Source: a virus. Taken from it: DNA of 64,000 bases. Position numbers and translations under genes: made by a program. The notes beneath the pieces are model-generated. The model did not search any database. It saw nothing but the letters and a program-made list of their open reading frames with translations, and was not told the DNA's origin. Position 1 is the stretch's first letter; each line of letters opens with the position of its first letter. The DNA lies in IMG/VR virus record IMGVR_UViG_3300025120_000034, positions 7,554-71,553 of that record; one strand, given 5' to 3'. Positions 1 to 64,000 of the stretch are shown piece after piece.

Positions 1-1003
1 AGTAAACACAGTCAACGGAAAGGAATTCAAAGTCCATCACCTCGATGAGGTACTCGTCGTATCCAAACGTGCTAGTACCTGAAGCTCTATCAATTCCTCT
101 CTGACCAAAAATCTCTTTGTTGTTGTATGACTTACCCCTTACAGAGCCAGCAATCTCTTCATACTCTTTCTCTGATATCTGATTACCAGCCTGTCTCTTG
201 AGTTCTTGAATGCTTATTCTTTTTACATGAGCACCGTAAACCAAGTCGGACATGTTAGGGTCTTCTGTTTGACTGTGCAGGAATGAAGCGGGGTCTACGT
301 ACTTAGTTGTTATTCCGTAGTTAGGGTCGTTCTCTCTTTTGATTACACCCATTCCACAAACAACCAAATCCTCTACAGCTCTCCTGTAAATCGTTTGGTC
401 AAAGTCATTCCAATCTAAAGTCAACGCTGTTCCCAACTGAGCAGCTATCTCAGCATTAGTCTTCATGTTTTGCTCCATGAAAATCTCTGCCTCTTCCGTT
501 GTGTCCGGAAGGATATCAGGGTCAATCCTTGGTTGAAGACCTAATGACTTAGCCTCCATTAATAAGTCCTTGTCTTTAATCGAAGCCTCTACCTCAGCTT
601 TTGCTTCATCCTTTTCCCCCTTACTGATTGGGTCGATGGCATCTACAGATGGATATGGCTTTCTGGAAAGAATCCTATTGACAACTACCTTTACAAACTT
701 AGGTATGATTGGAACAGGGCTCCAGTCTAAGTTAAGTAGAGTCCCGTCACCATTGTTTGGGTCAAGAGCATTTAGAATCTGTTTGTAAACAGACGTGTCT
801 TGTGTTCCGTTAGCGTAGTCTCTGTTCTTTTCAAAGTCCTGCATTCTTTGACTAAGTAGAGAGGTAGACGAATCTCCATTTCCCCACTGACTCTGAATTG
901 CTTTAGCGTACTTTAAACCGTAAGACTTCCCTAGCTTTTGTTCTGGTGACGCAAAGGGGTCTGGAAAGTTTCCGTATTTGGTATTTTTGCTCCCTTGGGT
1001 CAT
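1..1003 (-). CDS. Portal protein, copy A (N-terminal part, runs off the window's left edge)
   Basis: Not in the ORF track. Manual translation from ATG at 1003 gives MTQGSKNTKYGNFPDPFASPEQKLGKSYGLKYAKAIQSQWG...FEKNRDYANGTQDTSVYKQILNALDPNNGDGTLLNLDWSPVPIIPKFV, clearly homologous to the 55337..57724 protein. Lies directly downstream of TerL. Confidence 0.85.
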   Translation of the reverse strand, partial: MTQGSKNTKYGNFPDPFASPEQKLGKSYGLKYAKAIQSQWGNGDSSTSLLSQRMQDFEKNRDYANGTQDTSVYKQILNALDPNNGDGTLLNLDWSPVPIIPKFVKVVVNRILSRKPYPSVDAIDPISKGEKDEAKAEVEASIKDKDLLMEAKSLGLQPRIDPDILPDTTEEAEIFMEQNMKTNAEIAAQLGTALTLDWNDFDQTIYRRAVEDLVVCGMGVIKRENDPNYGITTKYVDPASFLHSQTEDPNMSDLVYGAHVKRISIQELKRQAGNQISEKEYEEIAGSVRGKSYNNKEIFGQRGIDRASGTSTFGYDEYLIEVMDFEFLSVDCVY

Positions 1004-1027
1004 GAAATATTTTGTTGGCCTCAAGTG

Positions 1028-1035
1028 CAAATATA
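1028..1035 (-). promoter_or_regulatory. Bacteroidota sigma-70-type -7 element (TATATTTG) upstream of portal A
   Basis: TAnnTTTG consensus; the same element sits before portal B (57750-57757). Confidence 0.65.
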
Positions 1036-1052
1036 ACAATATGCGGCGACCC

Positions 1053-3167
1053 CTAACTCAGCTTGTACCTTCTGAAGAAAACCTTCTCATCGAACTTAGC
1101 CTCTTTCTTTTCTGCCTTGACTTTTTGAGCAGCCAGTAAAGCTAAGCCAGCACTTATCGAAAGGTCATACTTTGTACGCTTGTCTATCTTGAATCCAACC
1201 CAATCTTCTAGAGTCCTATTAAAGTACATAGCTCCCGGTTCACCGTCTTCATTTAGACCAACATGATTGTGGATATAGTCCTCTATTGCGGAGGCGTGGG
1301 CCTGTATAACGTCCTGTGAATTTGAGGGGATACCCTTCGTTTTTACATTCACCGAAGAGCTAGGAGACTTTAGGTGAGCCGGCCTATCCATTACGTAACC
1401 GTCATAACCCCTTGATTCAAAGTACCTTACGATACCGTACTTGTTGTTCTCTATCAGTAACGGGTACCCATAAAACACAGCGGCCATCAATACATCTTCA
1501 TAGAATATCTTAGCCATCGGTGGTCTACTCGCGTACTCAGCTACAAACATATTGCTAGCCCCATCCAAGTTAAACTTGTTGTATATATGACAAGCACCCT
1601 TTGAGCCTCTTCCATCAACAGTAGCATCTAAGTCATAAGAGTCAACCCCTCCACACCCCCTGCTTGGGTTCGAGGGAATCATCTTACCCTTGTTTCTTGT
1701 CAGCACGCTTCGCTCAGAACTTTCAGGCATCCATGATACATACCACCTTCCGGCTGGGTTAGGATTAAAAACAACTTGGGTGTCCTTGACACCTCCCCTC
1801 CATTGAAAATTACCCTTGACTACTGGGTTAGGGTATAGAGAATCGTTATGCTCTATCTGTTCGTATATCTTACCAATATTAAATAGGCTCCCCTCTACAC
1901 TGTCCCTGAATGCTTCGTCCGGTGTAAATGGAAATTGACGGATAAGCTCATTTAATTCTTTCGCATCACTCTTAAGAGAATCCCTTTCGTTTCTTAGGAA
2001 TGTCTTGGAGCCAAAGGTCATCATGTCCCCCTCTAATGTTTTAACCTCATTCTTTGGGTCAGTGATGATTGGGTTTCCATAAAGGTCAAAGAAACCCTCT
2101 AACGATTCGTAGGCAGGAATAAACAACCTATACAGGCCTGACACTGTCCTTCCGTTAGCGTTACGTTTAAGCGGGTCTGAATCTCTCCATATCTGTTTGT
2201 ACTCAGAGCCACCCTTACCCATAGGGTTCACGGTACTCCCTACTAATGCCTTGCCTACTATACGACGGCCTACAATCAAACAGGTCCTCTCTATTCTCCA
2301 AGCCTCACGGATGTCAGATGGCTTCTCCCATTTACCTGCCTCGTCCATATACAACATATGAAGCTTCTCTCCGTCATACGCATTGTTCGTAGTGTTCTTC
2401 CAGTTGAGGACTGTATTCAATGCATCGCCAGCAAAAGAAGTCTTGTTGTTTTTTGTAATCCTTTTCGAGGGCTCGCGAAAGGCTAGCTCCATTCTTGGAT
2501 TTGTAGTACCGTCCTGAATAGGTTTGAAGAAAAATGGATAGTGCCTAAACATAGACACCACCTTCTTCATGAAGATATTTTCCTGCGCGTCTTTACCCGT
2601 CTTGCTCTGTATTCCGAGAAGCTTGTCTTTAACTTGAGTAGCTTCATCAAGAAGAACAGAGCTACAGATATTAGTGTAGCCAGAACGCCTACACTTAGTA
2701 TAAAGCTGACCGATGCAACGCGGGTCAGATTCACACGCAGCCATGTGGAGAAAGATGTCACGTTGGAACGCAAGATACGATGGGTATCCAATGTCAATCT
2801 TCGTCCACTGTAAGAGCATGTAGTGCCTCCCCGTGATATACGTAGGTTCACCCTTATTGTAAAACCAAAGACCCTCCCTACGCCTTCTAAATTCTTCCTC
2901 GATATATGGATGAAACTTCTCTCGAAACTCCTTCGGGGCCTCTGCCCACTCGTCCATACTTCTAAGACGGGACAGTTCTTTTGGCATAGGTACTCTCTCC
3001 CACATCTGCAAACTTGCCTCCAGACCCTCTCCTTTGATTCCGTCCTTCGGTATCGAGGGAAGGCAAATGAGAAGCCCGCCAAGTTCGACGATACTTCCGA
3101 CTGTACCGTTGGGACATATCTTAACAGCAGGCTCTTTATATTCATCTAGATTTAATAAGGTGTCCAT
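1053..3167 (-). CDS. terL: Terminase large subunit, copy A
   Basis: 704 aa; Walker A-like KCRRSGYT, Walker B LYMDEAGKW, coupling motif GST, RNase H-like nuclease GGVDSY...IENNK...DLSIS; adjacent to portal. Confidence 0.92.
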   Translation of the reverse strand: MDTLLNLDEYKEPAVKICPNGTVGSIVELGGLLICLPSIPKDGIKGEGLEASLQMWERVPMPKELSRLRSMDEWAEAPKEFREKFHPYIEEEFRRRREGLWFYNKGEPTYITGRHYMLLQWTKIDIGYPSYLAFQRDIFLHMAACESDPRCIGQLYTKCRRSGYTNICSSVLLDEATQVKDKLLGIQSKTGKDAQENIFMKKVVSMFRHYPFFFKPIQDGTTNPRMELAFREPSKRITKNNKTSFAGDALNTVLNWKNTTNNAYDGEKLHMLYMDEAGKWEKPSDIREAWRIERTCLIVGRRIVGKALVGSTVNPMGKGGSEYKQIWRDSDPLKRNANGRTVSGLYRLFIPAYESLEGFFDLYGNPIITDPKNEVKTLEGDMMTFGSKTFLRNERDSLKSDAKELNELIRQFPFTPDEAFRDSVEGSLFNIGKIYEQIEHNDSLYPNPVVKGNFQWRGGVKDTQVVFNPNPAGRWYVSWMPESSERSVLTRNKGKMIPSNPSRGCGGVDSYDLDATVDGRGSKGACHIYNKFNLDGASNMFVAEYASRPPMAKIFYEDVLMAAVFYGYPLLIENNKYGIVRYFESRGYDGYVMDRPAHLKSPSSSVNVKTKGIPSNSQDVIQAHASAIEDYIHNHVGLNEDGEPGAMYFNRTLEDWVGFKIDKRTKYDLSISAGLALLAAQKVKAEKKEAKFDEKVFFRRYKLS

Positions 3168-3352
3168 TACATTACTTGCCCCCAGCGGTTAGCCTTGAAA
3201 CTAGGCATACCTGACTTGGGTTCTTTTAAATCCATATATCCTCCACACTCATCACACCTTATGTCGTGCCTCACCTTACCGTCCAACATTTTGATGGATG
3301 TGTTGAGCCCCTCTTGCTCGTGGCTGCAATCGTTGCATATAAACTTTGCCAT
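3167..3352 (-). CDS. Small zinc-ribbon protein, copy A
   Basis: CNDC...CDEC; translationally coupled to TerL; homologue at 59884..60072. Confidence 0.75.
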   Translation of the reverse strand: MAKFICNDCSHEQEGLNTSIKMLDGKVRHDIRCDECGGYMDLKEPKSGMPSFKANRWGQVM

Positions 3353-3354
3353 AT

Positions 3355-3645
3355 CTACTTACTGAATTTTTCCGCGAATCCTCCTGAGTAATCTTTCTGT
3401 TGCTCGATGCTACCGTTAGACCTCATGTCTTTTACCATCTGTTCAAGCCGCTGCCGTTCCACCAAAAGTTCCTTGCAGTCCACCGCCGTCTGTTTAATAC
3501 TTTGCAGTTCAGCTTTCCTAGCACTTCCTCCAGCCTCAGGGTCAACAGGTTTTTTAACTTCATCAATCATGTTATCTATTGCAATCTCCATAGACCTCAT
3601 AAGTCTCTCGGCTGCGTTAATGGTAGTGAACTTACTTGACCGCAT
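3355..3645 (-). CDS. Conserved 96-aa helical protein, possible terminase small subunit, copy A
   Basis: Near-identical homologue at 60239..60529; position upstream of TerL. TerS function is inference. Confidence 0.6.
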   Translation of the reverse strand: MRSSKFTTINAAERLMRSMEIAIDNMIDEVKKPVDPEAGGSARKAELQSIKQTAVDCKELLVERQRLEQMVKDMRSNGSIEQQKDYSGGFAEKFSK

Positions 3646-4216
3646 ATGGGATGTCGTCTGATTTCATACGATAAACTATCGAGCCATCGTCAAGTTTCAT
3701 CTTGTAATCTCTGTCCTTTAAGAAGCCAACAACATCACCTTTAACTACACCCTCTTTAATCATGTCTATACTAGGTGTAACAACCCTAGCCTCATCCTTT
3801 GTTTCTTTAATAACGGATAAGATTATACCGCTGTCTGTCACGTCCTCCGATGCTTCCTCTTCTAAGGGCTCTAAGAAGACCCAGTCAGCCAGCATATGAA
3901 TATCTCCTTCCGAATCCCTATAAGCTATAGCGTGACTACCCCTCTTGTTTTGATTGTCATATATAGCCATATAGATTCCTTCTGATTCATCAATCACATT
4001 GGAGGCACCTGAAGTTACGTGGTGATGAAAGAACAAAGTGTCTCCCGGCTTGGCTCCGGTGTTGTGCTTAGAGGGGGCAGATATTATTTCCCCATAACAT
4101 ACTCTGTGTTCAAATTCGTTGAACCTAGTATCTAAGAAGATTTCTTTATCGCCAAGCTTTAGGGTTCCTGTTGATTTATTAGGAACCTTAACGAAGAAGT
4201 GATTTAATGTCTTCAT
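3632..4216 (-). CDS. GroES/Cpn10-like co-chaperonin (double length), copy A
   Basis: GroES-like segments (GEIISAP..KPGDTLFF; VTDSGIIL; VVKGDVVGF..YKMKLDDG.IVYRMKSDDI); homologue at 60516..61100. Confidence 0.65.
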   Translation of the reverse strand: MKTLNHFFVKVPNKSTGTLKLGDKEIFLDTRFNEFEHRVCYGEIISAPSKHNTGAKPGDTLFFHHHVTSGASNVIDESEGIYMAIYDNQNKRGSHAIAYRDSEGDIHMLADWVFLEPLEEEASEDVTDSGIILSVIKETKDEARVVTPSIDMIKEGVVKGDVVGFLKDRDYKMKLDDGSIVYRMKSDDIPYAVK

Positions 4217-4449
4217 TCAAAATTACAATCGTATTCAATTAAAAGTGGTTGGTTCTCAACCGTCTTCCAAATATACGTTGAATCTTCGTCCTCTAGGTAA
4301 ACATGATACCTTCTTACATTATACTTATATAGTGAAGCATCATCTTCTTTGATGGCGATTACCTTAGCACCACCAGCCTTCATGCCTACATAGTAAGCCA
4401 TAGCGTCCTTGGGGTTTGGCCCAATGACAATCTTTCTAATTACATTCAT
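4213..4449 (-). CDS. Conserved phage hypothetical protein (78 aa), copy A
   Basis: IRKIVIGPNPK.AMAYYVGM.AG; homologue at 61102..61338. Confidence 0.8.
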   Translation of the reverse strand: MNVIRKIVIGPNPKDAMAYYVGMKAGGAKVIAIKEDDASLYKYNVRRYHVYLEDEDSTYIWKTVENQPLLIEYDCNFE

Positions 4450-4455
4450 ATCTCT

Positions 4456-4740
4456 TTAGTTTAAAAAGAGACCCGGTAAATCAATTTCGTCTTCTTCACG
4501 TCCACGATGAAACGCTTCAACTTGAAGTGTAACAAACTCGTCAAACTCATCCGTGTCTCTACAATTGTGACCATAAGCCAAGCTCCATTTATTAGCTTCC
4601 TCGCCCTCTTCTTCTAAGTACCCAAAAGCTGTACTATACACCAACTCACCAGAGTGCTTGTACTTCTCTGCTATCTGTTCAACCTGAGCAAGCAAATCAG
4701 CAACCTCTTCAAACATAGCCTTCTTTAAAATGTCATCCAT
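4456..4740 (-). CDS. Acidic hypothetical protein (94 aa), copy A
   Basis: Syntenic and weakly similar to 61338..61634 (both acidic, ending in LN). Confidence 0.7.
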   Translation of the reverse strand: MDDILKKAMFEEVADLLAQVEQIAEKYKHSGELVYSTAFGYLEEEGEEANKWSLAYGHNCRDTDEFDEFVTLQVEAFHRGREEDEIDLPGLFLN

Positions 4741-4756
4741 GATAATAAGATACGAA

Positions 4757-5593
4757 TTATGGGGCAGGCATAACTAATACAGCAGCTACTGTAGTGCTAG
4801 ATGTTGTAAGATTAGCGGTCACTAACCAGTTAGTAGAGTCTACAGCAACAATATCGACAACATCGCCCTGACGACCACCGCTACTAGTCGAATCAGGGTC
4901 TAGATTTATTTCGTTGCGAGAGTTGTTCTGGGTCACGGTTCCCACTCTAGATTGACCAGTAGCTGAGTTAGAAGTTACAACAGCCTTACCATAAACATAA
5001 TCACCTGTTGCTGTGACAATACTTATGTTTCCAGTATTCGCTCCAATAATGATGAATTTAAAAACAACTCCGGGAGCCGCAGCAGGCAATGTAATAACAA
5101 ACCCACTAACAGAGTTTAAGTAATACGTGCTTCCAGAATTACTGGCAAGGAGAGTGGTGCTTGTACTAAGCTGGTTGATTGTTTCATTACCCCTCCCAAT
5201 AGTAATTACGTTGCTTGCTCGACTGTAACTCAAGCCGTCAGTTGCAGCCAGTGTAATCGTAGTGCTTGATGCGTCAGCGGCTTCGATGGTTATGGTAGGC
5301 GCAGCACTTCCACCAACGGTTGTGCTAACCGTAGAGTTAGATGGGAAGGTTCTATACTCGATTGCTTTTGTGCTGTCATTCCACACTAAAGCCTTTGAAC
5401 TTGAACTACCCCCTGTAATAGTATTAACCTGCAAAGCAGCTGCCTTTACGGTGGATGTAGATAAAGACAGAGCTGATTCATTTCCAGAGCCGTCTTGAAT
5501 AACCTTTAGTGTTCCGGTAAAGTTACCCGCATCACTGGTTTTAAGCAACCCAGTGTATGTATCTTTCAATCTAGTTCCGCTAAGAGTAGCCAT
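4757..5593 (-). CDS. Ser/Thr/Gly-rich putative virion (fibre/decoration) protein
   Basis: 278 aa; MATLSGT.LKDTY.GLLKTSD N-terminus and ITLPAAAPG.VFKFI beta-rich motif typical of phage structural proteins. Confidence 0.6.
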   Translation of the reverse strand: MATLSGTRLKDTYTGLLKTSDAGNFTGTLKVIQDGSGNESALSLSTSTVKAAALQVNTITGGSSSSKALVWNDSTKAIEYRTFPSNSTVSTTVGGSAAPTITIEAADASSTTITLAATDGLSYSRASNVITIGRGNETINQLSTSTTLLASNSGSTYYLNSVSGFVITLPAAAPGVVFKFIIIGANTGNISIVTATGDYVYGKAVVTSNSATGQSRVGTVTQNNSRNEINLDPDSTSSGGRQGDVVDIVAVDSTNWLVTANLTTSSTTVAAVLVMPAP

Positions 5594-5598
5594 GTTCT

Positions 5599-5617
5599 TA
5601 AATTTGAAACAAATATA
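5599..5617. promoter_or_regulatory. Overlapping divergent TAnnTTTG promoters, copy A
   Basis: TAAATTTG (+, 5599-5606) and CAAATATA (= TATATTTG on -, 5610-5617) in a 30-bp gap between divergent genes; conserved at 61639-61661. Confidence 0.65.
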
Positions 5618-5623
5618 CTACTA

Positions 5624-6052
5624 ATGAGTAGACATCATCCGGTTAGGAAGAGAAGGGAATTTAGCAAACTGAACAAGAGATATGTAAAGAAGAATGAGTT
5701 GAAGAAACTATCTATGGTTATGAGAGACATCAGGCTTAACTATGATATAGGTACAGCTGAAATAGAGGCTATGCTCTTTTGTTATGACTACGAGTTCTTT
5801 ACCGTTGACCACCTAGCCAAGGCAATGAAGAAGAGCAGGAGTAAGCTGTATGAAAGAACGGTAATGCCTCTACAACAAAAGGGATACCTAGAAGTAATTC
5901 ATCACGGAAAGGGAATAGACTCATTCGTTAACGCTATGTTTCACGAAGCAGGTCATCACAAGAATAGACTTGGTTTGTCTCAGTCGGGAAGAATTCTAGT
6001 TCAAAGAATATACAGAAAGCTAGAAGGGGGAGAACCTATAAAACTATCCTAG
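5624..6052 (+). CDS. Winged-helix (MarR-like) DNA-binding protein, copy A
   Basis: Basic N-terminus, helix-turn-helix region, wing LSQSGR; homologue at ~61675..62091 (YD.EFFT, PL...GY, SQ.GR..VQR.Y). Confidence 0.65.
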   Translation: MSRHHPVRKRREFSKLNKRYVKKNELKKLSMVMRDIRLNYDIGTAEIEAMLFCYDYEFFTVDHLAKAMKKSRSKLYERTVMPLQQKGYLEVIHHGKGIDSFVNAMFHEAGHHKNRLGLSQSGRILVQRIYRKLEGGEPIKLS

Positions 6053-6600
6053 CTATCAAACCTTAGTCTGTAACTTCCGTACTGGTCTTCAAAATTTTCA
6101 TTATACCCAAGTATCTTAGATATGTAGTCTCTAGTCTCAAGGGGTAATTCTTCAATCCAGTCAAGAGATTCATATATATCCTTGCCCTGTTCTTTAGCTT
6201 TGTTAAGCACGCGAACTGTAGCTGTAGGGCCATAGTTATATGCTGCCAATGCTTTAGCAATCTTAATCTCATCAGAGCCTTTATTCCAGCTCCTGTTCAT
6301 TAGACTATTCATATAAACCTGTTGCGCTTCTTTCGAGTGCTCAGGGTTGAATGGGTCGAAATCTTCTCGAAGCATTCCCTTCTCCTTTAGGTACTGCTCT
6401 GTTCCGGGCATTATCTGAGCTAATCCTCTCGCACCAGCTGGAGACTCAGCCAAGGGGTTTCCCGTGGATTCCTTATATATCTGTCTGTCCAGAATAGAAT
6501 CAAAAGACTTCGCTCCGCTTGGAGGCCAGTCTACTAAACCACCCTCTCTCATGCTTACTCTGGAGACCCTTTGAAATTTTTTTCCGCGTTTTACAAGCAT
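6049..6600 (-). CDS. Lytic transglycosylase (SLT family)
   Basis: ES.GNP.A.SPAGA.GL.QIMP.T, ALAAYNYG, ETRDY motifs. Likely start is the ATG at 6600 rather than 6651. Confidence 0.88.
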   Translation of the reverse strand: MLVKRGKKFQRVSRVSMREGGLVDWPPSGAKSFDSILDRQIYKESTGNPLAESPAGARGLAQIMPGTEQYLKEKGMLREDFDPFNPEHSKEAQQVYMNSLMNRSWNKGSDEIKIAKALAAYNYGPTATVRVLNKAKEQGKDIYESLDWIEELPLETRDYISKILGYNENFEDQYGSYRLRFDS

Positions 6601-6659
6601 GGGCACAATATACGGAATCTTAATGCGTTGTATAAGGGAACCCCATAACACAATTCATT

Positions 6660-7151
6660 ATGAAGAATTTATTTTTTATCCTAGCAATCGCATTGGCAAT
6701 CGTAAGCAACGCTCAATCCCTTAATAGTATCCTCGATGGTATTTACGCACCAACAGAAGAGAACGCACTTAGCACACCCCTACTACTAAGTATGAAACCA
6801 CAGAACGGAATACCGCACGAGGTTCTCGTAATCCGGGCCGTGGGCATGAATCCAGACTCAATCTTTGGAGACGTACTAGACCCGAACTTGGGTACCTCGC
6901 TGGAAACGTACACCGTATTCCACGGAGCAGACGTATTAGCCTTACCTCTTTTTGAGAAAGGTATCTACACCATCCTTTGCTTAGACGAGGATGGAAACAA
7001 CGTAGGAGAGGGAGTACATATCGTCGTGAACGAAAACTTCATTCAGGGAGTCATAGATACAGGATACGCAGAAAAAAGAAGCAGCCTAATCGTATCGACT
7101 AGACCTCTTCGTATTGGTCGGGATAGAACCGAGTTCGTTTCCTTCAACTGA
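6660..7151 (+). CDS. Secreted/periplasmic hypothetical protein with signal peptide
   Basis: MKNLFFILAIALAIVSNA/QS is a Bacteroidota-type Sec signal followed by Gln; preceded by the ACAATA-N15-CGTT motif at 6605-6629. Confidence 0.75.
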   Translation: MKNLFFILAIALAIVSNAQSLNSILDGIYAPTEENALSTPLLLSMKPQNGIPHEVLVIRAVGMNPDSIFGDVLDPNLGTSLETYTVFHGADVLALPLFEKGIYTILCLDEDGNNVGEGVHIVVNENFIQGVIDTGYAEKRSSLIVSTRPLRIGRDRTEFVSFN

Positions 7152-7736
7152 TTACATTCCACCTCGCAGACCGGGAACGACCTTAGGGAGGTCTCTTTCT
7201 CTCTCGTACTTAACGGGAGCGATGTTGAGTTTAGCTCTGAGGCCGTCCATGTCTTCGGCACCAAACTCTCCCATCAACGATTTGTTGTAAGAGCCTTGGT
7301 TCATCTCAGGGAAAGTGACACCTTTGTCACCGCCCTCCACAGCGATACCAGCCATACGATATGCCTGCATCATGTTATCCGCGTCAGGGAAGATTTCCAT
7401 GAGGTCTCTCGGATTGATTTGCTTTACTCCATCTTCTGTTCTCATGAAGACTGCTGCAATCTCTTTACCCGATGGGTCGTCACCGCGATTGTCAAACCCA
7501 GAAGCCACGAAAAACTTTCTAGGTGGGTCTCCCACTTCTCCGCCTTTATCGTATTGCTGTACGACACCTCCGCCCATCATCTCATACATCTTACCACCTT
7601 GGCCCATCTCAACCTTGGCACCATATTCGGCCCTATTCATCTTCATGCCGTACATGGCTTTCTTGAGGTCATTACCCCCTTTGCCATCTGCTGCAAAAAA
7701 CGGGACTTCTTTGCCCCCAACTTTAACCATTTTCAT
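7152..7736 (-). CDS. Gly/Met-rich hypothetical protein with repeated xxGG motifs
   Basis: 194-aa ORF; TATATTTG element at 7741-7748; syntenic with 62895..63689. Confidence 0.75.
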   Translation of the reverse strand: MKMVKVGGKEVPFFAADGKGGNDLKKAMYGMKMNRAEYGAKVEMGQGGKMYEMMGGGVVQQYDKGGEVGDPPRKFFVASGFDNRGDDPSGKEIAAVFMRTEDGVKQINPRDLMEIFPDADNMMQAYRMAGIAVEGGDKGVTFPEMNQGSYNKSLMGEFGAEDMDGLRAKLNIAPVKYERERDLPKVVPGLRGGM

Positions 7737-7756
7737 ATCGCAAATATAGTTGTTGT

Positions 7757-8179
7757 TTAACTTCTTAAATCTGTGTCGTGTTTACGAGAACCCTTTATGT
7801 AGCTGTTGACCCTGCCCATTGCCCAAGCTGCCATTGGCGCACCTCTCCTTGAGCCAGACGAAAGCCAAGCACCCTGCCCACGTCGGTAAACTTGCTTTAG
7901 GGTTCCGAAAGAAATTCCGGAACTCTTGGCTTTCTTTTGTAGCGTAGACGAAGTTGCTGAACTAATTGGCTTAGCCTTTACTTTAGTACCTGTCTTCGCC
8001 TCTACTCGCTTCTTAAATAGAGATAGCTTGATACGCTTGCCAGACTTGTAGTCCTTCGCCATCTTCTTCTTGTTGTCGGCATCCTCCTCTACAGTGGCTT
8101 TGATTTCTTTACCCTGTCCGGGGTCGGTATACTTCGTTGGTAGTCCCAACTTATACGACTGTTTTCTCTTACTTGCCAT
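7757..8179 (-). CDS. Basic protein, DUF5824-like
   Basis: LKQVYRRGQGAW.SSGSR.G....WAMGRVNS.I.G...HD.DL motif. Confidence 0.7.
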   Translation of the reverse strand: MASKRKQSYKLGLPTKYTDPGQGKEIKATVEEDADNKKKMAKDYKSGKRIKLSLFKKRVEAKTGTKVKAKPISSATSSTLQKKAKSSGISFGTLKQVYRRGQGAWLSSGSRRGAPMAAWAMGRVNSYIKGSRKHDTDLRS

Positions 8180-49981: not shown

Positions 49982-49983
49982 AA

Positions 49984-51147: not shown

Positions 51148-51155
51148 TTTTTAGC

Positions 51156-51326: not shown

Positions 51327-51349
51327 TTGAATTGAATTAAGGTTTGAAA

Positions 51350-52608: not shown

Positions 52609-52661
52609 GATATGCTATTTTTTTATTTTCTAAATATTTCAACAAATATACAACGTATTTA

Positions 52662-53252: not shown

Positions 53253-53256
53253 GAGT

Positions 53257-54933: not shown

Positions 54934-54942
54934 AATAATATC

Positions 54943-55335: not shown

Positions 55336-55336
55336 C

Positions 55337-57718: not shown

Positions 57719-57763
57719 TTGCAATGAGTCGAGTTCTTATAACTCAATGCAAATATAGTAAAA

Positions 57764-59884
57764 CTAGGAGTGCCACACTTTAGGCTTGAAAGTCCTTATA
57801 AACTGCTTGTTTGTGAAACTAGATTGCTTCTTTTCTTGCTTAACTTTTTGAGCGGCTAAAAGGGCTAGACCAGAACTTATAGTAAGGTCAAACTTAGTCC
57901 TGTTGTCTATCTTGTAGCCAATCCAATCTTCTAGGGTCTTATTAAAGTACATGTTTCCGAACTCGTCGGACTCTGGCTTGATGCCTACGTGGTTATGTAT
58001 GTAAGCCTCAATTGCCTGAGCGTGAGACTGTATTACATCCTGGGAGTTAGATGGTATGCCTTTGGTTCTAACGTTTTTGGATGAACCAGGAGTTTTCAGG
58101 AAGTCGGGGCGATCCATTAAGTATCCGTCGTAACCTCTTGATTCAAAGTACCTTACGATACCGTACTTATTGTTCTCTACAAGTAAAGGATACCCGTAAA
58201 AGAAAGCGCACATTAAAACGTCTTCGTAAAATATACTGGCTAAATCTGGACGGGAGGCATATTCCGCAACGAACATATTGGCAGGGCCTTCCATGTTGAA
58301 CTTGTTGTACATGTGTAAAGCGCCCTTAGATCCTCTGCCGTCAACTGTTGAATCCAAGTCGTAGGAGTCAACACCGCCGCAACCTATATGTCCGTTTGGG
58401 GCAACCTTCTTGCCTCCTTCTTCTTTCTTTACGTTCTTGTTTTTAGGCATCCAGGAAACCCTAAACCTGCCGTTTGGGTCAGGAGAAAAAGCCACCTCCT
58501 CATCTTTTTTAACCCATACAAAGTTGCCTTTTACTACAGGATTAGGAAACAAGTCGTCGTTGTATTCTATCTGTTGGTAAATCTTACCCAAATTAAAAAG
58601 ACTTCCCTGAATGCTATCTCTAAACGCCTCGTCCTCAGTAAAGGGGAATTGACGTACTATTTCGTTTAGCTCGGAAGGGTCGTCTTTAAATGACTGGCGA
58701 TCATTCTTAAGGTATCGTTTGCTGCCTTCTTCGATAGGATCCCCGTCTATACCTTGTATGTTTTGGGGAGGATCATCAACAATGGAATTGCCGTATACGT
58801 CGAAAAAACCTTCAAGAGCATCATAGGCTGGGATGAATATTCTGTATAATCCAGATCTAGTTCGTCCGTTGTTGTTTCTTTCAGTAGGCTTTGAGTCTTT
58901 CCAAAGCTCTCTGTATTCGCTACCGCCTTTACTCATTGGGTTAACGGTAGACCCTACAAGGGCCTTCCCAACAATCCTCTTACCGACTATTAAACAGGTT
59001 CTTTCTATCCTCCAAGCCTCTCTGATGTCAGTGGGCTTCTCCCACTTACCAGCTTCGTCAAGATATAGCATGTGAAGCTTTTCCCCGTCATAAGCGTTAT
59101 TAGTGGTGTTCTTCCAGTTGATAACCGTATTAAGAGCATCACCCCTATGGGATGTTTTATTGTTTTTGGTTATACGCTTCGACGGTTCACGGAATGCCAA
59201 CTCCATGCGGGGGTTTGTAGTACCGTCCTGGATGGGTTTGAAAAAGAATGGATAGCTGCGAAAGATCGCAACCACCTTCTTCATGAAAATGTTCTCCTGC
59301 GAGTCTTTACCAGTTTTCGACTGTATGCCAAGAAGCTTCTCTTTAACTTGACTAGCTTCATCCACCAAGACAGCAGAGCATATGTTAGTGTAGCCAGAAC
59401 GACGACACTTAGTATAAAGCTGACCGAAACAACGAGGGTCAACTTCACAAGCAGCCATGTGCGTAAAGATGTCTTTTTGGAAAGAGAGGTATGATGGATA
59501 TCCGACATCAATTTTAGACCATTGTAGAAACATATAGTGTCTCCCTGTAATATACGTAGGTTCCCCATTATTGTAAAACCATAAACCGTCGCGCCTACGC
59601 TGAAACTCTTGTTCGATGTAAGAACGAAACTTGTTCCGAAACTCGGCAGGTTTTTCGAACCACTCATCCATGCTGCGTATCCTTTGCATTTCCTCTGGCA
59701 TAGGTGCGCGTTTCCACATTTGCAGCTTCTTTGGCTGGTCATGGAAGAGGATTTTCGATTTGAGCGGTTTCTTTGGAAGGACCACGAGTAGCCCGTGGAG
59801 CTCGACAACTTCTCCTTCTGTAACGTTAGGGTCGATCTTAATCCCTTTAGTTTCATAACCCTTTATATCTGTTAAAACGGACAT
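57764..59884 (-). CDS. terL: Terminase large subunit, copy B
   Basis: 706 aa; same motifs as copy A (KCRRSGYT, LDEAGKW, GGVDSYD). Confidence 0.92.
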   Translation of the reverse strand: MSVLTDIKGYETKGIKIDPNVTEGEVVELHGLLVVLPKKPLKSKILFHDQPKKLQMWKRAPMPEEMQRIRSMDEWFEKPAEFRNKFRSYIEQEFQRRRDGLWFYNNGEPTYITGRHYMFLQWSKIDVGYPSYLSFQKDIFTHMAACEVDPRCFGQLYTKCRRSGYTNICSAVLVDEASQVKEKLLGIQSKTGKDSQENIFMKKVVAIFRSYPFFFKPIQDGTTNPRMELAFREPSKRITKNNKTSHRGDALNTVINWKNTTNNAYDGEKLHMLYLDEAGKWEKPTDIREAWRIERTCLIVGKRIVGKALVGSTVNPMSKGGSEYRELWKDSKPTERNNNGRTRSGLYRIFIPAYDALEGFFDVYGNSIVDDPPQNIQGIDGDPIEEGSKRYLKNDRQSFKDDPSELNEIVRQFPFTEDEAFRDSIQGSLFNLGKIYQQIEYNDDLFPNPVVKGNFVWVKKDEEVAFSPDPNGRFRVSWMPKNKNVKKEEGGKKVAPNGHIGCGGVDSYDLDSTVDGRGSKGALHMYNKFNMEGPANMFVAEYASRPDLASIFYEDVLMCAFFYGYPLLVENNKYGIVRYFESRGYDGYLMDRPDFLKTPGSSKNVRTKGIPSNSQDVIQSHAQAIEAYIHNHVGIKPESDEFGNMYFNKTLEDWIGYKIDNRTKFDLTISSGLALLAAQKVKQEKKQSSFTNKQFIRTFKPKVWHS

Positions 59885-60072
59885 TAATAGCTCTGACCGT
59901 GTGAGTTCATTCTGCCCAACGAAGGTACACCTTCTTTAGGGTTTTTAATCTCCATTTGTTCACCGCATTCACACTGCCCTTCAGGGTAGTAAACGCTACC
60001 GCCCTTAAATTTCATGGTAAGGCTTCTTACAGATCTCTCTGCTTTACATTTTTCGCAAATTAAGTCTGGCAT
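59884..60072 (-). CDS. Small zinc-ribbon protein, copy B
   Basis: CEKC...CECG; homologue of 3167..3352. Confidence 0.75.
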   Translation of the reverse strand: MPDLICEKCKAERSVRSLTMKFKGGSVYYPEGQCECGEQMEIKNPKEGVPSLGRMNSHGQSY

Positions 60073-60089
60073 CTTGTTTGATTTTATTG

Positions 60090-60163
60090 TACCCTCACTA
60101 GGAATCGAACCTAGAACCTACAGCTTAGAAGGCTGTTGCTCTATCCAGTTGAGCTATAAGGGC
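60090..60163 (-). tRNA. tRNA-Arg (anticodon TCT)
   Basis: Minus strand GCCCTTATAGCTCAACTGGATAGAGCAACAGCCTTCTAAGCTGTAGGTTCTAGGTTCGATTCCTAGTGAGGGTA folds as a full cloverleaf. Confidence 0.93.
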
Positions 60164-60238
60164 TTGTAGTTAACTATTTGTTTGGTTGTGCTGGTTTGGT
60201 CAAAGATGTAATCCTCCCAGTATATTAGCCCACTAGCT

Positions 60239-60529
60239 TCATTTAGAGAATCTTTCTGCAAATCCTCCTGAGTAGTCTTTTGTTTGTTCAATTTCTCCAT
60301 TGTTACTTAGTTCTTTAACCATTTGCTCTAGTCTCTGGCGCTCCACCAAAAGCTCTTTACAGTCAACGGCAGTCTGCTTTATGGATTGGAGCTCAGCCTT
60401 ACGCGCAGAACCTCCCGCCTCAGGATCGACAGGCTTTTTTACCTCTTCGATCATATTGTCGATAGCGACCTCCATGCTGTGCATTAGCCTTTTCGCAGCC
60501 GATATAGTCGTGAATTTAGGCTTCGACAT
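60239..60529 (-). CDS. Conserved 96-aa protein, possible terminase small subunit, copy B
   Basis: Near-identical to 3355..3645. Confidence 0.6.
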   Translation of the reverse strand: MSKPKFTTISAAKRLMHSMEVAIDNMIEEVKKPVDPEAGGSARKAELQSIKQTAVDCKELLVERQRLEQMVKELSNNGEIEQTKDYSGGFAERFSK

Positions 60530-61100
60530 AGTATATATCGTCTAGTCTCGTTCTGTAGAAGGTGTCTCCGTCGATCTTGAAGGAGTAGTCAGAGTCTTTC
60601 CTTACTCCAACTACGTCTCCTTTCTTCACGCCTAAGTCTTTTAGCTTTTTATTTTCAAAAGCGACTTTAGCTGTTTTAACTTGAGGTTCCTTGAGTTTAA
60701 CAATTTGTATGCCACTTGAAGAAGCTTCGGGCTTTTGCTCAACATGACTGAGAATTGACCAGGAAGAGAGAGCAGAGATTTTACCAGTCCTTTTAGACTT
60801 GTAAGCAAAAGCTTGAGAACTAACGGCATGGTCAGGATGATAATGAACAACAAAATGATTATCGTCAACAGGAAGAGGCTGAGCGTCAGCCATAACAACG
60901 AGGTGATGAAAGTAAAGGGTGTCCCCTTTCTCAACGCCTGTTTCGTGTTTCGCAGGAACAGCAACAACTTCTCCTTCATTTACTCTGTTTTTAAATGGTT
61001 CAAATTTGGTGTCTATATAAAGCTTTAGGCCACCTTCTGTTTCTATCTCGTCTTCAAACTTCTTTTCGAGATAAACAATAAAGTTATTTAGACTCTTCAT
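60516..61100 (-). CDS. GroES/Cpn10-like co-chaperonin (double length), copy B
   Basis: GEVVAVP...VEKGDTLYFHH; SSGIQI; VKKGDVVG; homologue of 3632..4216. Confidence 0.65.
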   Translation of the reverse strand: MKSLNNFIVYLEKKFEDEIETEGGLKLYIDTKFEPFKNRVNEGEVVAVPAKHETGVEKGDTLYFHHLVVMADAQPLPVDDNHFVVHYHPDHAVSSQAFAYKSKRTGKISALSSWSILSHVEQKPEASSSGIQIVKLKEPQVKTAKVAFENKKLKDLGVKKGDVVGVRKDSDYSFKIDGDTFYRTRLDDIYYVEA

Positions 61101-61101
61101 A

Positions 61102-61338
61102 TTAAAAATTTAAATCAAATTCAACTATGCATGGCATCTCTTCCACGCTTTTCCATAGCATTGTAGATCCGTCGCGCTCTATATACACAAGATACCTTTT
61201 TATTGATTTCTTGAATAATAGCTCGTCGTCTAAAATGATAGCAGAGACAAGTCCGTTTCCTGCCCTCATACCTACGTAATAGGCCATACCTTCTTTCGGG
61301 TTTGGCCCGATAACAATTTTTCTAATAAGTCCTTCCAT
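61102..61338 (-). CDS. Conserved hypothetical protein (78 aa), copy B
   Basis: Homologue of 4213..4449. Confidence 0.8.
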   Translation of the reverse strand: MEGLIRKIVIGPNPKEGMAYYVGMRAGNGLVSAIILDDELLFKKSIKRYLVYIERDGSTMLWKSVEEMPCIVEFDLNF

Positions 61339-61634
61339 TAGTTCAGGGATATACCCAGTCCACCAAGAAGATTGTCTAATGAGTCGTCATCCGAATAAGC
61401 GGTATCCATAACCTGCTTTAATGTTTCTAACTCTTCCCTGTTCTCAAGGTTGAAGCTATACATTGTTTTCATCTCTGCGCTGTCATCGTCCTCCTCAACG
61501 GCGTCAAAGTCTATGACTCCAACAACTATAGAGGCAAGGGTTCGGTCTTTCATTTCGAACTCATCAATCGTCTCCTCCATCTTTTTGACGAGAGAGTACA
61601 TTTCGGCAAAGAAGAGGGTGTCTTTAGGGTTCAT
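61338..61634 (-). CDS. Acidic hypothetical protein (98 aa), copy B
   Basis: Syntenic with 4456..4740. Confidence 0.7.
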   Translation of the reverse strand: MNPKDTLFFAEMYSLVKKMEETIDEFEMKDRTLASIVVGVIDFDAVEEDDDSAEMKTMYSFNLENREELETLKQVMDTAYSDDDSLDNLLGGLGISLN

Positions 61635-61638
61635 GATG

Positions 61639-61661
61639 TAAATTTGTTTGAGTCAAATATA
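61639..61661. promoter_or_regulatory. Overlapping divergent TAnnTTTG promoters, copy B
   Basis: TAAATTTG (+, 61639-61646) and CAAATATA (61654-61661). Confidence 0.65.
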
Positions 61662-61674
61662 CGACACATTTTAC

Positions 61675-62091
61675 ATGCCTAGGTCAACAGTTAGAAAAAC
61701 GAGATTGTTTAGAGATGTTTCCATGCTTCCAGAAAAGTATGTAAAACAAAACTTCTTAAAGAACATAAGGAGTGCTACGGACATGTTCTTGGACGGAAGC
61801 GATCTGACCAAAAGCTACCTGTACTTTATGCTGTTCATATATGATCTTGAGTTCTTCACGATATCCTGGGTGGCTAGCGAGTACGGAATGAACAAAAAGA
61901 ATTTAGCTGACAGGATGATATACCCACTAGTATCTATGGGGTATATATACAAGCACTTCGATAGACTCACGCCTTCCTCGACAGCCGAGGATCACTTGTT
62001 TCGTGATGAGACAAAATATAACTACAGAGTTCGTTATGCGATGTCACAGAAAGGAAGGCTAGCGGTGCAGCGTTTTTACAACACCTTGTAG
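61675..62091 (+). CDS. Winged-helix (MarR-like) DNA-binding protein, copy B
   Basis: Homologue of 5624..6052. The ATG at 61675 (MPRSTVRK) aligns with MSRHHPVRK; the track's 61648 start lies inside the promoter. Confidence 0.65.
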   Translation: MPRSTVRKTRLFRDVSMLPEKYVKQNFLKNIRSATDMFLDGSDLTKSYLYFMLFIYDLEFFTISWVASEYGMNKKNLADRMIYPLVSMGYIYKHFDRLTPSSTAEDHLFRDETKYNYRVRYAMSQKGRLAVQRFYNTL

Positions 62092-62537
62092 TACACTCCC
62101 TTTTCATCTCGGTAGGCTCGCTTGATCTGCTTCCTGTTGTTTCCGCCCTCTTTGAATGACACATGTATCCAGGCAGGGTTCTCGTCATCACCGAACTCCC
62201 AGATCATTTGGTCCCATTCCAGGTTCTTCTTAATGAAGTCGAATATCTCTGAGTTGTTAACCTTCCCATACATATCGGCGTCTATATCAATAGCTTCCCC
62301 GATCATATGCTGAGAGTATTTACTTCCTCCAATCGCTTTGTTCAGCGCCTTTGATCTAAATCCAGAGGTAACACCGATGGGTACACCAAAGTGATCACGT
62401 ATAGGTTGAAAGATATGGTCTGCTACAGCCTGTAGGTTGTGAATGGCCCACTGGTCAGGGGTGTTGTCTATCCCCTTTCGGGTCGCGGTGTTTGATTTCA
62501 CCACCTCCTTTAACGTAAGGTTTTTGCTTAATTTCAT
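62076..62537 (-). CDS. Peptidase M15 endolysin (Zn D-Ala-D-Ala carboxypeptidase fold)
   Basis: SGFRS..LN.AIGG...SQH..GEA.D, DQ.IWE, WIHVS; promoter TAACTTTG at 62619-62626. Confidence 0.88.
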   Translation of the reverse strand: MKLSKNLTLKEVVKSNTATRKGIDNTPDQWAIHNLQAVADHIFQPIRDHFGVPIGVTSGFRSKALNKAIGGSKYSQHMIGEAIDIDADMYGKVNNSEIFDFIKKNLEWDQMIWEFGDDENPAWIHVSFKEGGNNRKQIKRAYRDEKGVYYKVL

Positions 62538-62713
62538 TTTTCTGAGCCACCCAAGACGGGTTGATTCTTTTAATTCGAGGATTGTGATAATATTTCTTCA
62601 ATCTATGATTGAATATAGCAAAGTTAGAAAAAAAATTTGTGAGATCGAAAAGTTTGTCTTACCTTGAGATCAGCAAACCGAATTTACGAAACAATTTAAA
62701 ACAGTTATTTGCT

Positions 62714-62911
62714 ATGAACAATTCATTCTTTATCCCCGCTACACTGGTAGCAATCTTTTTCGCTGTGTCTGCAATCTGCATCCTCGATACAGCGCCCCGT
62801 CCAACTGGCGATGTCGTCAAAAGCCAGGCTCAATTATTTGAGAACCACATTGTGGAAGGCATGATTGCCCGACAACAAGCTAAGCTAGACGCTATTAAAA
62901 AGAAGCTTTAA
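62714..62911 (+). CDS. Small membrane-anchored protein
   Basis: ATG at 62714 (MNNSFFIPATLVAIFFAVSAICIL) with a hydrophobic N-terminus; same slot and strand as 6660..7151. Confidence 0.5.
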   Translation: MNNSFFIPATLVAIFFAVSAICILDTAPRPTGDVVKSQAQLFENHIVEGMIARQQAKLDAIKKKL

Positions 62912-63689
62912 TTACAGGCTGATCAGCTTGTAAGAAGAACCCTCTTTGAGTAGGGTCTTTATAAACCTCGGACATTACCATTGAATTGATCGCACCGCGA
63001 TTTTGATTCCTGGTAAATAGTTCGGGGTTTTTTCGTGCTAGTTCTTTCATGAACTCCATTGCATATGGATCTCTAGCATTTACTCCTGCCTCTTTCATGA
63101 GCTCAAACACCTTTGGTGTAGCATACATGTCTTTTCCGTCTTGTCTAAACCCTTGAGCAAAAGCATCCTTCTCACCACCCAGTGTTCTGTATCCAGCATC
63201 TGGGTTCTTAGAGTCTTTTCTGGTGTAGGCCCTTACGTTAGACGTGGTAGGCTCAAACATAATCGGCTGTGAAGAAGACTCCTCTCTAGGCTGTTCTTCT
63301 CTTCCCCCTCCCATAAGCATTCTGGCTAGGTCTTGCCTGACTGGTTGAGGTCCTCTTCGTCTCACAGGCATCATGTTTTCACCTCGTGGGGATTCTTCTG
63401 ACGGCATCTCATAGCCCTCAATAGCTCTCAAGGCAGAAGCCAGTCCTGGCATAGCCACATCCGTAGATTTTTCACTTCCTTGAGAAGGCATTGATCCTGA
63501 CTCTTGGGCTGCGTTATCTGCTGCAACCATGCTTGCGATAGCCGCCAAAGCCTCTTTTCTTGGATCCCCCTCAACTGGACCTCCTACAGCGTACTTTTTT
63601 ACCATACCGCCATATCTGTAACTGTTGCATCCTGCACATTTAGGCTTTCCGCAGCCACAACCACCAGACTTAGATTTTCTTACCATCAT
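62895..63689 (-). CDS. Hypothetical protein with Cys-rich N-terminus and YxxGG motifs (264 aa)
   Basis: TATATTTG element at 63694-63701 just upstream; syntenic with 7152..7736. Confidence 0.75.
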   Translation of the reverse strand: MMVRKSKSGGCGCGKPKCAGCNSYRYGGMVKKYAVGGPVEGDPRKEALAAIASMVAADNAAQESGSMPSQGSEKSTDVAMPGLASALRAIEGYEMPSEESPRGENMMPVRRRGPQPVRQDLARMLMGGGREEQPREESSSQPIMFEPTTSNVRAYTRKDSKNPDAGYRTLGGEKDAFAQGFRQDGKDMYATPKVFELMKEAGVNARDPYAMEFMKELARKNPELFTRNQNRGAINSMVMSEVYKDPTQRGFFLQADQPVIKASF

Positions 63690-63712
63690 ATCGCAAATAT
63701 AACTATATTTTT

Positions 63713-64000
63713 TTATCCAGGATAATAGCTATTGGAGTAGTACATACCCTGAGGCTGTTGGTACTGAGGGCCTCCAGAGTTCACCGCACCCCCAACATTT
63801 GGATCAAACCCATAGCTAAGCTGAGAGTTGTCCTGCATAGGCACTTCAGGTAGTGCTATTGGTTCTGGTTTTAGGGTTTTATATATGTCCATACCCACAT
63901 CTACTACAGGCTTAACCGTGTCTACCACCTTCTTTACCTTCTGAGCTCCCTGTAAGATCTTTGCACCCGTGCTCAACGCTGTCGTCCCTGCCGTGGTTGC
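63713..64000 (-). CDS. Hypothetical protein, C-terminal part (5' end beyond window)
   Basis: The frame stays open to the window edge; the track's 63976 start is an internal TTG. Confidence 0.55.
   Translation of the reverse strand, partial: ATTAGTTALSTGAKILQGAQKVKKVVDTVKPVVDVGMDIYKTLKPEPIALPEVPMQDNSQLSYGFDPNVGGAVNSGGPQYQQPQGMYYSNSYYPG

Follow-up and report, generated by a model that had tools for sequence, protein, structure and literature searches.

Two diverged packaging cassettes in a marine virus record most likely belong to two related phages joined by the assembler

The two packaging cassettes of the virus record IMGVR_UViG_3300025120_000034 are real sequence, but they most likely come from two different marine phages that were joined by the assembler. 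Judging from sequence comparisons, it is highly probable that the assembly made one turn of a circular 56-kb genome, wrapped around and then ran on into a related phage, and that the arrangement is an artefact and not two motors. The duplication is most likely not a property of any single genome. The DNA analysed, called the window here, is a stretch of 64,000 nucleotides from this one 71,553-bp record of IMG/VR; window position 1 is record base 7554, and the first 7,553 bases of the cycle described below lie to its left. The two copies of the cassette are called copy A and copy B, the phages to which they are assigned phage A and phage B, and the single-copy middle block of the record M. The original prediction left a choice between a head-to-tail join of two related phages (recombinant concatemer or assembly chimera) and one phage carrying two packaging motors. 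Our analysis favours the join and gives no support to two motors in one phage. This preference is based on a 127-bp exact vertex at the first base of the record, on relatives with a single TerL, on the split of the two TerL in a tree, and on the association in relatives of the backbone with the A type only.

Results

Two diverged copies of the packaging cassette

Self-blastn, the ORF list and blastp confirmed that the packaging cassette is present twice in the same order. On the whole record, copy A takes up approximately the first 13.6 kb and copy B the stretch from 55.3 to 69.6 kb, with 14 colinear gene pairs that are 28–84% identical in amino acids. The repeat had therefore been placed correctly from the window, but its extent was underestimated there, since the 14 gene pairs are seen only on the full record. 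In self-blastn, window 666-3010 matched 57390-59724 with 68.5% identity over 2,378 nt, 3364-3591 matched 60248-60475 with 72%, and 4373-4440 matched 61259-61326 with 81%. The starts of the two TerL genes, predicted to be about 56.7 kb apart, are separated by 56,717 bases.

Amino acid identity between the copies varied among the genes (Table 1 for positions). It was 84% for the 96-aa protein, 72% for TerL, 59% for the portal and 57% for the 78-aa protein, and 35% for the GroES-like protein, 35% for the Cys protein and 32% for the + strand protein. The GroES-like label was supported by the PHROG and Pfam matches listed in Table 1. For the label 'wHTH' on the + strand protein there is only a Pfam hint that stays below threshold. 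The acidic proteins had also been paired, but blastp detected no similarity between them at E 1e-3; with isoelectric points of 4.25 and 4.05 they are analogues by position only. The endolysins of A and B likewise have no mutual similarity and occupy the same relative position. One gene is extra in copy A, and each part of the record has a tRNA-Arg gene. Pfam and PHROG scans gave no family match for a 3,322-aa ORF or for several cassette proteins. The 458-aa virion structural protein of the single-copy block, used here as a backbone marker, is probably the major capsid protein, judging from its position.

Table 1. Parts of the record and cassette features in window coordinates (strand given where recorded; phage assignments follow the preferred reading)
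Feature	Window position	Strand	Family match or remark
Part of the cycle in the window (putative phage A): A-type cassette, early/replication genes, single structural block	1-48366 (record 7554-55919)
Second occurrence of the 127-bp repeat N	48367-48493 (record 55920-56046)		inside the 285-aa tail gene; first occurrence outside the window
Stick, 15,507 bp (putative phage B): tail/fibre, portal, TerL, GroES-like, lysis	48494-64000		right end of the record falls within a gene
Portal, copy A, 829 aa	2-1039, runs off the window (whole gene record 6103-8592)	-	PHROG 6547, E 1e-198
Portal, copy B, 795 aa	55337-57724	-	PHROG 6547, E 1e-192
TerL, copy A, 704 aa	1053-3167	-	PHROG 6681, E 9e-197
TerL, copy B, 706 aa	57764-59884	-	PHROG 6681, E 2e-211
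Four-Cys protein, 61/62 aa	A 3167-3352; B 59884-60072		ORF list
tRNA-Arg, copy B	60089-60163
96-aa protein	A 3355-3645; B 60239-60529		ORF list
GroES-like protein, copy A, 194 aa	3632-4216	-	PHROG 13932; Pfam Cpn10 below cut-off
GroES-like protein, copy B, 194 aa	60516-61100	-	PHROG 13932; Pfam Cpn10 34.1 bits, above cut-off
78-aa protein	A 4213-4449; B 61102-61338		ORF list
Acidic protein, 94/98 aa	A 4456-4740; B 61338-61634		ORF list
Extra gene of copy A, 278 aa	4757-5593
Basic protein	A 5624-6052; B 61648-62091	+	ORF list
Endolysin A, transglycosylase/lysozyme-like, 200 aa	6049-6651	-	PHROG 669 and others
Endolysin B, peptidase type, 153 aa	62076-62537	-	PHROG 894, E 2e-39; 95% aa to the G001 homologue
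Virion structural protein, 458 aa, single-copy block	44733-46109	-	PHROG 13704
Tail protein gene containing N, 285 aa	47785-48642	-	PHROG 17517

A 127-bp exact repeat at the start of the record

Record bases 1–127 are identical to bases 55,920–56,046, and the first mismatch is at base 128. No other exact repeat in the record is as long; those of at least 20 bp measure 35, 34, 32, 25, 25, 25, 23, 23 and 20 bp. One occurrence lies at the very terminus of the contig (base 1) and the other is internal, with 15,507 bp beyond it. Because of this exact repeat at the record start, the record reads as a 55,919-bp cycle followed by a 15.5-kb stick, and because the second occurrence is internal, the shape is that of a lollipop and not of a plain circle. 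The JGI metagenome workflow uses metaSPAdes with k of 33, 55, 77, 99 and 127, the largest k being 127 (bioRxiv 10.1101/2020.09.30.320929). The length of the repeat would be the top k of the assembler if, as we infer, the record was made by this workflow with this k. A real genome with two diverged copies that share 127 bp of identity would likewise give a contig that stops at the vertex.

Closing the cycle restores a gene. When base 55,919 is joined to base 1, the frame stays open over 287 aa, with 93.7% identity to the 285-aa tail gene, and the closure aligns unbroken to two independent IMG/VR contigs, G001 (1,984 nt, 93.1%) and L166 (1,649 nt, 92.0%). The path as written, from M through N to B, drops the matches to both contigs at record base 56,181. 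As written, the 285-aa tail gene has a B-type N-terminal part, and the A-type N-terminus is found at record bases 273–1. Both ends of the record cut genes. At the left end only 91 aa of the tail gene are left, an N-terminal piece 80% identical to the 285-aa tail protein, and the ORF at the right end is open at the end, its homologue in G001 having 212 aa. The size of the cycle, 55,919 bp, fits the 55,066–64,005 bp of closed relatives. The M-to-B join appears to be the false one.

The right end of the record has no exact repeat of at least 9 bp elsewhere in the record, and neither IMG/VR nor the metagenome collection yielded a near-identical contig (at least 95%) across either junction. When a 40-mer of the 127-bp repeat was searched for exact matches, it occurred in one other IMG/VR contig (L166, about 92% identical) and in no metagenome contig. 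In a run search with window 43400-53399, which spans the M-to-B join, one run had 0.98 of the sampled words and the other 23 runs had 0.14–0.37; the first is probably the source sample and hence not independent. The other 23 runs carry the label 'marine/seawater metagenome'.

Relatives of the two copies

A single TerL was counted in 15 of 16 long related IMG/VR records, and one TerL place in all 118 matching GenBank phage records. The exception is G017 (68,281 bp), which has diverged overlapping ends, 1–3228 against 63585–66807, with 69% nucleotide identity. G017 was considered as a second case of the 127-bp signature and set aside: its last exact match is just 32 bp, so the same assembler signature is unproven there. 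Three relatives with direct terminal repeats have lengths of 55,066, 60,853 and 64,005 bp.

Each copy is much closer to its kin elsewhere than to the other copy: TerL A is 99% identical in amino acids to that of L002, and TerL B is 100% identical to that of L082 and 98% to those of G001 and L084. The stick is 92% identical in nucleotides over 8.8 kb to G001, a record with a single TerL, and 98.5% identical to L082. G001 is itself a mosaic. Its cassette is B-type (90–99% aa, portal to endolysin), its structural backbone has just 30–57% amino acid identity to that of the record, and its first gene is A-like (74–94% aa). For the first gene of B past the vertex relatives reach at most 72% amino acid identity, and for the 458-aa backbone protein at most 85%. 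Megablast of the fetched loci gave no match of at least 85% inside record 10.6–55.1 kb. With the first 8 kb of the window as query, a search of GenBank phages (50,697 records) gave nothing beyond one 139-nt match at 70%.

A tree of TerL, with 155 rows and Elemovirus as root, separates A from B at its basal split, which divides 72 from 82 tips. A lies in a 22-row clade and B in a 45-row clade, each with support 99. The backbone was compared in 36 loci that have a homologue of the 458-aa virion protein together with a portal or TerL. The eight loci with the nearest backbone protein (69–71% aa) have A-type portals, 75–84% identical to A versus 60–63% to B, and in the eight loci with a portal nearer to B the backbone protein is just 36–45% identical. 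In these comparisons the single-copy structural block goes with A-type portals. The link is a tendency and not a rule, because mosaicism is strong in the group, as seen in G001.

Discussion

The record would be explained as a walk through a lollipop-shaped de Bruijn assembly graph and not as one genome. Bases 1–55,919 may represent a virulent marine podophage, phage A, whose circular (or circularly permuted) genome was traversed once in full. At 55,920–56,046 the walk would come back to its starting 127-mer vertex, and it would then leave by the other outgoing branch into a 15.5-kb piece of phage B, a relative that was also in the sample. This piece of phage B would carry tail/fibre genes, portal, TerL, GroES-like and lysis genes. 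If the walk went through two phages, the cassettes are alleles of one module in two phages and not two motors in one virion. According to the original prediction, a real duplication would gain support if the full contig had a single capsid and replication module. The record has just one of each, but this does not discriminate, because the record is only 1.28 unit lengths long and the fragment of the second phage simply stops.

A different error of assembly has to be considered, in which M is a collapsed repeat. Two real phages, A plus M and B plus M, would share a near-identical M and differ in the 15-kb cassette, and only their concatenation would be false. A 127-mer at the first base fits this graph equally well, and cassette exchange is known in the group from G001. 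One run contains 98% of the sampled words across the 10-kb M-to-B stretch, as would be expected, although this run is probably the source and not an independent sample. However, the start of M is then expected after the right end, with a repeating vertex near record 14–15 kb, and the last bases have no exact repeat, nor does the right end have blastn similarity to 14–16 kb at E 1e-3. B-type portals in relatives also pair with backbone proteins that have low identity to that of M. We consider a collapsed M unlikely. It is still less likely that the record is a real molecule, either a hetero-concatemer or recombinant intermediate of two co-infecting phages or a genome of more than 71 kb that has two cassettes owing to a diverged tandem duplication. 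All genes of both copies are intact ORFs, but this is expected just as much from two working phages, and the left end falls to the base on the 127-bp exact repeat, with genes cut at both ends. G017, which likewise has diverged overlapping ends, speaks for a real molecule; it is the one departure from the single TerL seen in the other long relatives and in the GenBank phages. A genome of more than 71 kb would presumably need to fit a capsid of the same family, whose closed relatives have 55–64 kb. Since the TerL of A and B lie across the basal split of the tree, the duplication would predate the sampled group and yet be missing from its other members.

Two related prophages in tandem in a bacterial chromosome would also give a head-to-tail order of two related elements, with a tRNA-Arg gene in each part. 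Both tRNA genes lie inside phage modules, away from the junction, and no integrase, excisionase or repressor family was detected in 67 of the 85 ORFs, scanned against PHROGs, the other 18 ORFs having at most 106 aa. Host genes are absent and there is no direct repeat at 14–16 kb. The relatives are closed virus records of 55–64 kb, and the nearest cultured kin are podophages of Flavobacterium and Cellulophaga, which we take to be lytic. With no integrase in the scanned ORFs, no att repeats and no host genes, tandem prophages were rejected as an explanation, and their probability is close to nil. True terminal redundancy was rejected because of the divergence of the copies.

The proposed wrap-around into a second phage can be compared with known systems. 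It resembles the '127 bp artificial overlaps' that SPAdes and metaSPAdes produce for circular genomes, in that an exact 127-bp repeat starts at the first base of the record and its two occurrences are 55,919 bp apart, in keeping with the genome size of closed relatives. In an ordinary k-mer-length overlap the contig ends with the second occurrence of the 127 bp, whereas this record runs on for 15,507 bp along the branch of a related phage. A check for terminal repeats misses the case because the contig goes on past the second occurrence. Chimeric contigs from mixed related strains are similar as well: two lineages are joined in one contig at a stretch of identity, and for each half the nearest relatives are found elsewhere and not in the other half. 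The difference is that here the join comes after a full turn of the genome, and the result mimics a 15-kb diverged terminal redundancy and not a simple mosaic. As in phage terminal repeats (T5- or T7-type DTR, headful redundancy), the two ends have their genes in common, with order and orientation preserved. True terminal repeats, however, are identical, whereas the copies here are about 68% identical in nucleotides over TerL and portal and 28–84% in amino acids, make up about 26% of the unit length and have genes cut at the ends. The earlier conclusion that the copies are not a terminal repeat therefore holds.

Among cultured phages the record was compared with Elemovirus (Flavobacterium phage vB_FspP_elemo, podophages of about 60 kb) and with related Cellulophaga, Tenacibaculum and crAss-like phages. 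Elemovirus has a similar genome size and a TerL 40% identical in amino acids over 95% of its length, and NC_055853 has the same order of endolysin, several genes, GroES-like, TerL, portal and virion structural proteins. The kinship is only distant, and unlike those phages the record has about nine tail/fibre genes between the portal and the capsid block, and the 3,322-aa ORF without family match. By sequence, the record shows kinship with Elemovirus-like marine Bacteroidota podophages at approximately the family level, not membership of the genus.

The relevance of the finding is mainly one of data quality. The record is classed in IMG/VR as having linear ends, and its completeness estimate by CheckV is 100, but most likely it consists of a closed genome of 55.9 kb to which 15.5 kb of another phage have been added. 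Such a chimera inflates length and doubles hallmark genes, and it could mislead clustering, host-range calls and claims of gene duplication. A simple screen for this class, which checks for terminal repeats miss, is to ask whether the k bases at the start or at the end of a contig recur exactly inside it. There is only a very small chance that a real molecule underlies the record, be it a hetero-concatemer or a stable tandem, with two anciently diverged cassettes (tail fibre, portal, terminase, lysis) one genome length apart. If true, either motor could serve for packaging, in one phage or in two that co-infect, and the modules for host recognition and packaging could be switched together; G017 would then be a further natural case and not another artefact. 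For the biology of the group, the comparison shows that the 15-kb block of tail/fibre, portal, TerL and GroES-like genes up to the endolysin circulates as exchangeable alleles in an abundant group of marine phages, with its left border inside a conserved tail gene, as ordinary phage mosaicism.

Gene content and the duplicated cassette

The window covers bases 7,554-71,553 of one single virus record of 71,553 bp, with ends classed as linear by IMG/VR and a completeness of 100 (CheckV). Crude ORF prediction yielded 85 ORFs in the record. PHROG scans covered 67 of these, the other 18 all being 106 aa or shorter. Matches included TerL, portal, collagen-like tail fibres, several virion structural proteins, a virion protein of 1,754 aa, a RecE-like exonuclease, a primase/helicase and an ArdC-like anti-restriction protein, in which Pfam found ArdcN and a zincin peptidase domain. 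No integrase was found among the 67 ORFs scanned. Neither the 3,322-aa ORF nor its neighbours of 581 aa and 312 aa had a PHROG or Pfam match at E 1e-3, or a blastp match at E 1e-5 in G001, a related IMG/VR record (loci L161-L163). The 371-aa Peptidase_M43 protein lies at the border of the replication and virion blocks and has 69-74% aa identity in G001, where it is two ORFs. The 245-aa, 362-aa and 373-aa proteins likewise each correspond to two adjacent ORFs in G001, so that these four genes of G001 seem to contain either frameshift errors or genuine breaks.

Self-blastn aligned window positions 666-3010 with 57390-59724 (68.5% nt identity over 2,378 nt) and gave shorter matches between the cassettes at 72% and 81%. 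Self-blastp among the 85 ORFs gave 14 colinear gene pairs with 27.6-84.4% aa identity (Table). The duplication is far beyond chance, and the repeated packaging block of the original prediction is present. Its extent is larger on the whole record than could be seen in the window, copy A running from record base 1 to ~13.6 kb, colinear with copy B at 55.3-69.6 kb. The copies are separated by a single early/replication block and a single structural block.

The acidic proteins (pI 4.25 and 4.05) have no detectable similarity to each other and are paired by position only. Copy A has an extra gene of 278 aa, and copy B has one of 387 aa plus a tRNA-Arg. The endolysins after the + strand gene occupy the same place but belong to different families according to the PHROG scans, and the small + and - strand genes beside them are also unrelated between the cassettes. 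Because these genes are non-homologous yet in the same position, the exchangeable block seems, from sequence comparison, to extend to the lysis genes. The two tRNA-Arg(TCT) genes are 84% identical and stand at non-equivalent places; copy A has no gap at the spot where B holds its tRNA, and the tRNA-Arg of G001 is placed as in B, in the four-Cys/96-aa gene interval on the - strand. The tail-fibre genes, coding for 728 aa in copy A and 558 aa in copy B, both match collagen-like tail fibre families, and their products are unrelated past the first 65 aa, as expected for swapped receptor-binding parts.

Table. Features of the record and identities of paired genes in copies A and B
Feature	Position	Strand	Remark
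3,322-aa ORF	window 24280-34248	-	adjoins tail and virion genes
371-aa protein	window 22271-23386	-	Peptidase_M43 (pappalysin-type) zinc metallopeptidase domain, Pfam 64.5 bits
Endolysin, copy A	window 6049-6651	-	transglycosylase/lysozyme-like
Endolysin, copy B	window 62076-62537	-	PHROG 894 peptidase
tRNA-Arg(TCT), A cycle	window 17250-17324	+	in early/replication block
tRNA-Arg(TCT), B	window 60089-60163	-	packaging cassette, between four-Cys gene and 96-aa gene
9-bp-period short direct repeats in tail-fibre genes	record 5341-5384 (left of window) and window 54674-54707		
TerL pair			72% aa identity
Portal pair			59% aa identity
96-aa protein pair			84% aa identity
78-aa protein pair			57% aa identity
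GroES-like pair			35% aa identity
Four-Cys 61/62-aa protein pair			35% aa identity
+ strand basic protein pair			32% aa identity
Tail fibre pair			74% aa identity, limited to first 65 aa

Assembly of the record

Record bases 1-127 recur exactly at 55,920-56,046, inside the gene for a 285-aa tail protein, with the first mismatch at base 128. This is the longest exact repeat of the record and starts at its first base; the remaining exact repeats of at least 20 bp measure 35, 34, 32, 25, 25, 25, 23, 23 and 20 bp. The largest k accepted by SPAdes is 127. In its assembly description, the JGI metagenome workflow uses metaSPAdes with k 33, 55, 77, 99 and 127, so that its largest k is 127 (bioRxiv 10.1101/2020.09.30.320929). 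We infer that the record was assembled by such a workflow. It would then represent a walk passing one graph vertex twice, first around a 55,919-bp cycle and then 15,507 bp along the other outgoing branch of the vertex. The right end of the record has no exact repeat of 9 bp or more elsewhere in it. The ordinary k-length overlap of circular SPAdes contigs works in the same way, but here the walk would run on into a second phage and therefore be missed by a terminal-repeat check.

When base 55,919 is connected to base 1, a 287-aa open frame results, with 93.7% identity to the 285-aa tail gene. The sequence across this closure has one unbroken match in each of two independent related contigs, G001 (1,984 nt, 93.1%) and L166 (1,649 nt, 92.0%), whereas along the path written in the record both matches end at 56,181. 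At the left record end the tail gene is limited to its first 91 aa, and at the right end an ORF is still open (its G001 homologue has 212 aa). Both record ends cut genes and are therefore not packaged genome termini. No near-identical contig spanning either junction was present in the collections searched.

Relatives and the middle block

Among cultured phages, those closest by TerL are the Flavobacterium phages that make up the genus Elemovirus (40% aa, about 60 kb); Cellulophaga, Tenacibaculum and crAss-like phages come next. An Elemovirus genome has the same local order as here: endolysin, several genes, GroES-like, TerL, portal and structural proteins. IMG/VR contains very many members of the group, with more than 590 confirmed relatives for each TerL query as a lower bound. 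One TerL was found in 15 of 16 long IMG/VR records of the group, and one TerL place in all 118 matching GenBank phage records. Three of the 16 long records have direct terminal repeats (55,066, 60,853 and 64,005 bp).

A FastTree of 155 TerL rows comprised the two copies and 153 loci in which the coverage was 650 aa or more, leaving out partial TerLs such as that of locus L002. Rooted on Elemovirus, it separated A from B at the basal split, between groups of 72 and 82 tips. Copy A belongs to a clade of 22 rows and copy B to one of 45 rows, each supported at 99, although rows were picked as best hits of each copy, a choice that favours two clusters. Among the matches listed, TerL A is 99% identical (aa) to L002, and TerL B is 100% identical to locus L082 and 98% to G001. 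Judged by these proteins, each copy is far closer to kin elsewhere than to the other copy, the choice of rows notwithstanding.

Thirty-six fetched loci contain both a homologue of the 458-aa virion protein of the middle block and a portal or TerL. The eight nearest to this protein (69-71% aa) have portals with 75-84% identity to A and 60-63% to B, whereas the eight loci with portals nearer B have just 36-45% identity to the 458-aa protein. G001 (55,069 bp, one TerL) carries a B-type cassette at 90-99% aa identity (92% nt over 8.8 kb), with a structural block just 30-57% identical (aa) to that of this record. Since A-type portals accompany the nearest 458-aa homologues and the B cassette of G001 sits on another structural block, the middle goes with A, which would make its join to B the suspect one.

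Another IMG/VR record of this phage group, G017 (68,281 bp, another sample, ends classed linear; L164 = 1-8000, L165 = 58000-68281), has diverged overlapping ends. Bases 1-3228 are 69% identical (nt) to 63585-66807, with a partial second TerL at the first bases, and its final 311 bp match 5360-5670 at 96.8% identity, exactly so only in the last 32 bp. G017 probably arose as a wrap-around chimera of the same kind, from another assembler or k.

Discussion

The two-cassette arrangement most likely does not exist in any real genome. The 127-bp repeat, the closure, the cut ends, the single-TerL relatives and the TerL tree support an assembly chimera of two related phages, one of the alternatives originally proposed. 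The other, one phage with two packaging motors, found nothing in its support, with one TerL in 15/16 long relatives and 118/118 matching GenBank records. A contig would also break at the vertex if a genuine genome contained two diverged copies with 127 identical bases in common; a paired-end assembler would then be expected to walk on into a distinct upstream sequence. A phage terminal repeat was ruled out by a nucleotide identity of 68% instead of 100%, and a tandem prophage by the lack of an integrase (67/85 ORFs scanned), att repeat or host flank.

It is improbable, but consistent with the mosaicism of the group, that both cassettes occur in the sample joined to the same middle block, which was collapsed in assembly; the contig would still be an artefact. 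In G001 the first gene after the vertex is A-like and the cassette further on is B-like, and the phage group is strongly mosaic. Counting in this collapsed-repeat variant, the arrangement is almost certainly not a genome feature. The value of the finding is chiefly that of a curation note.
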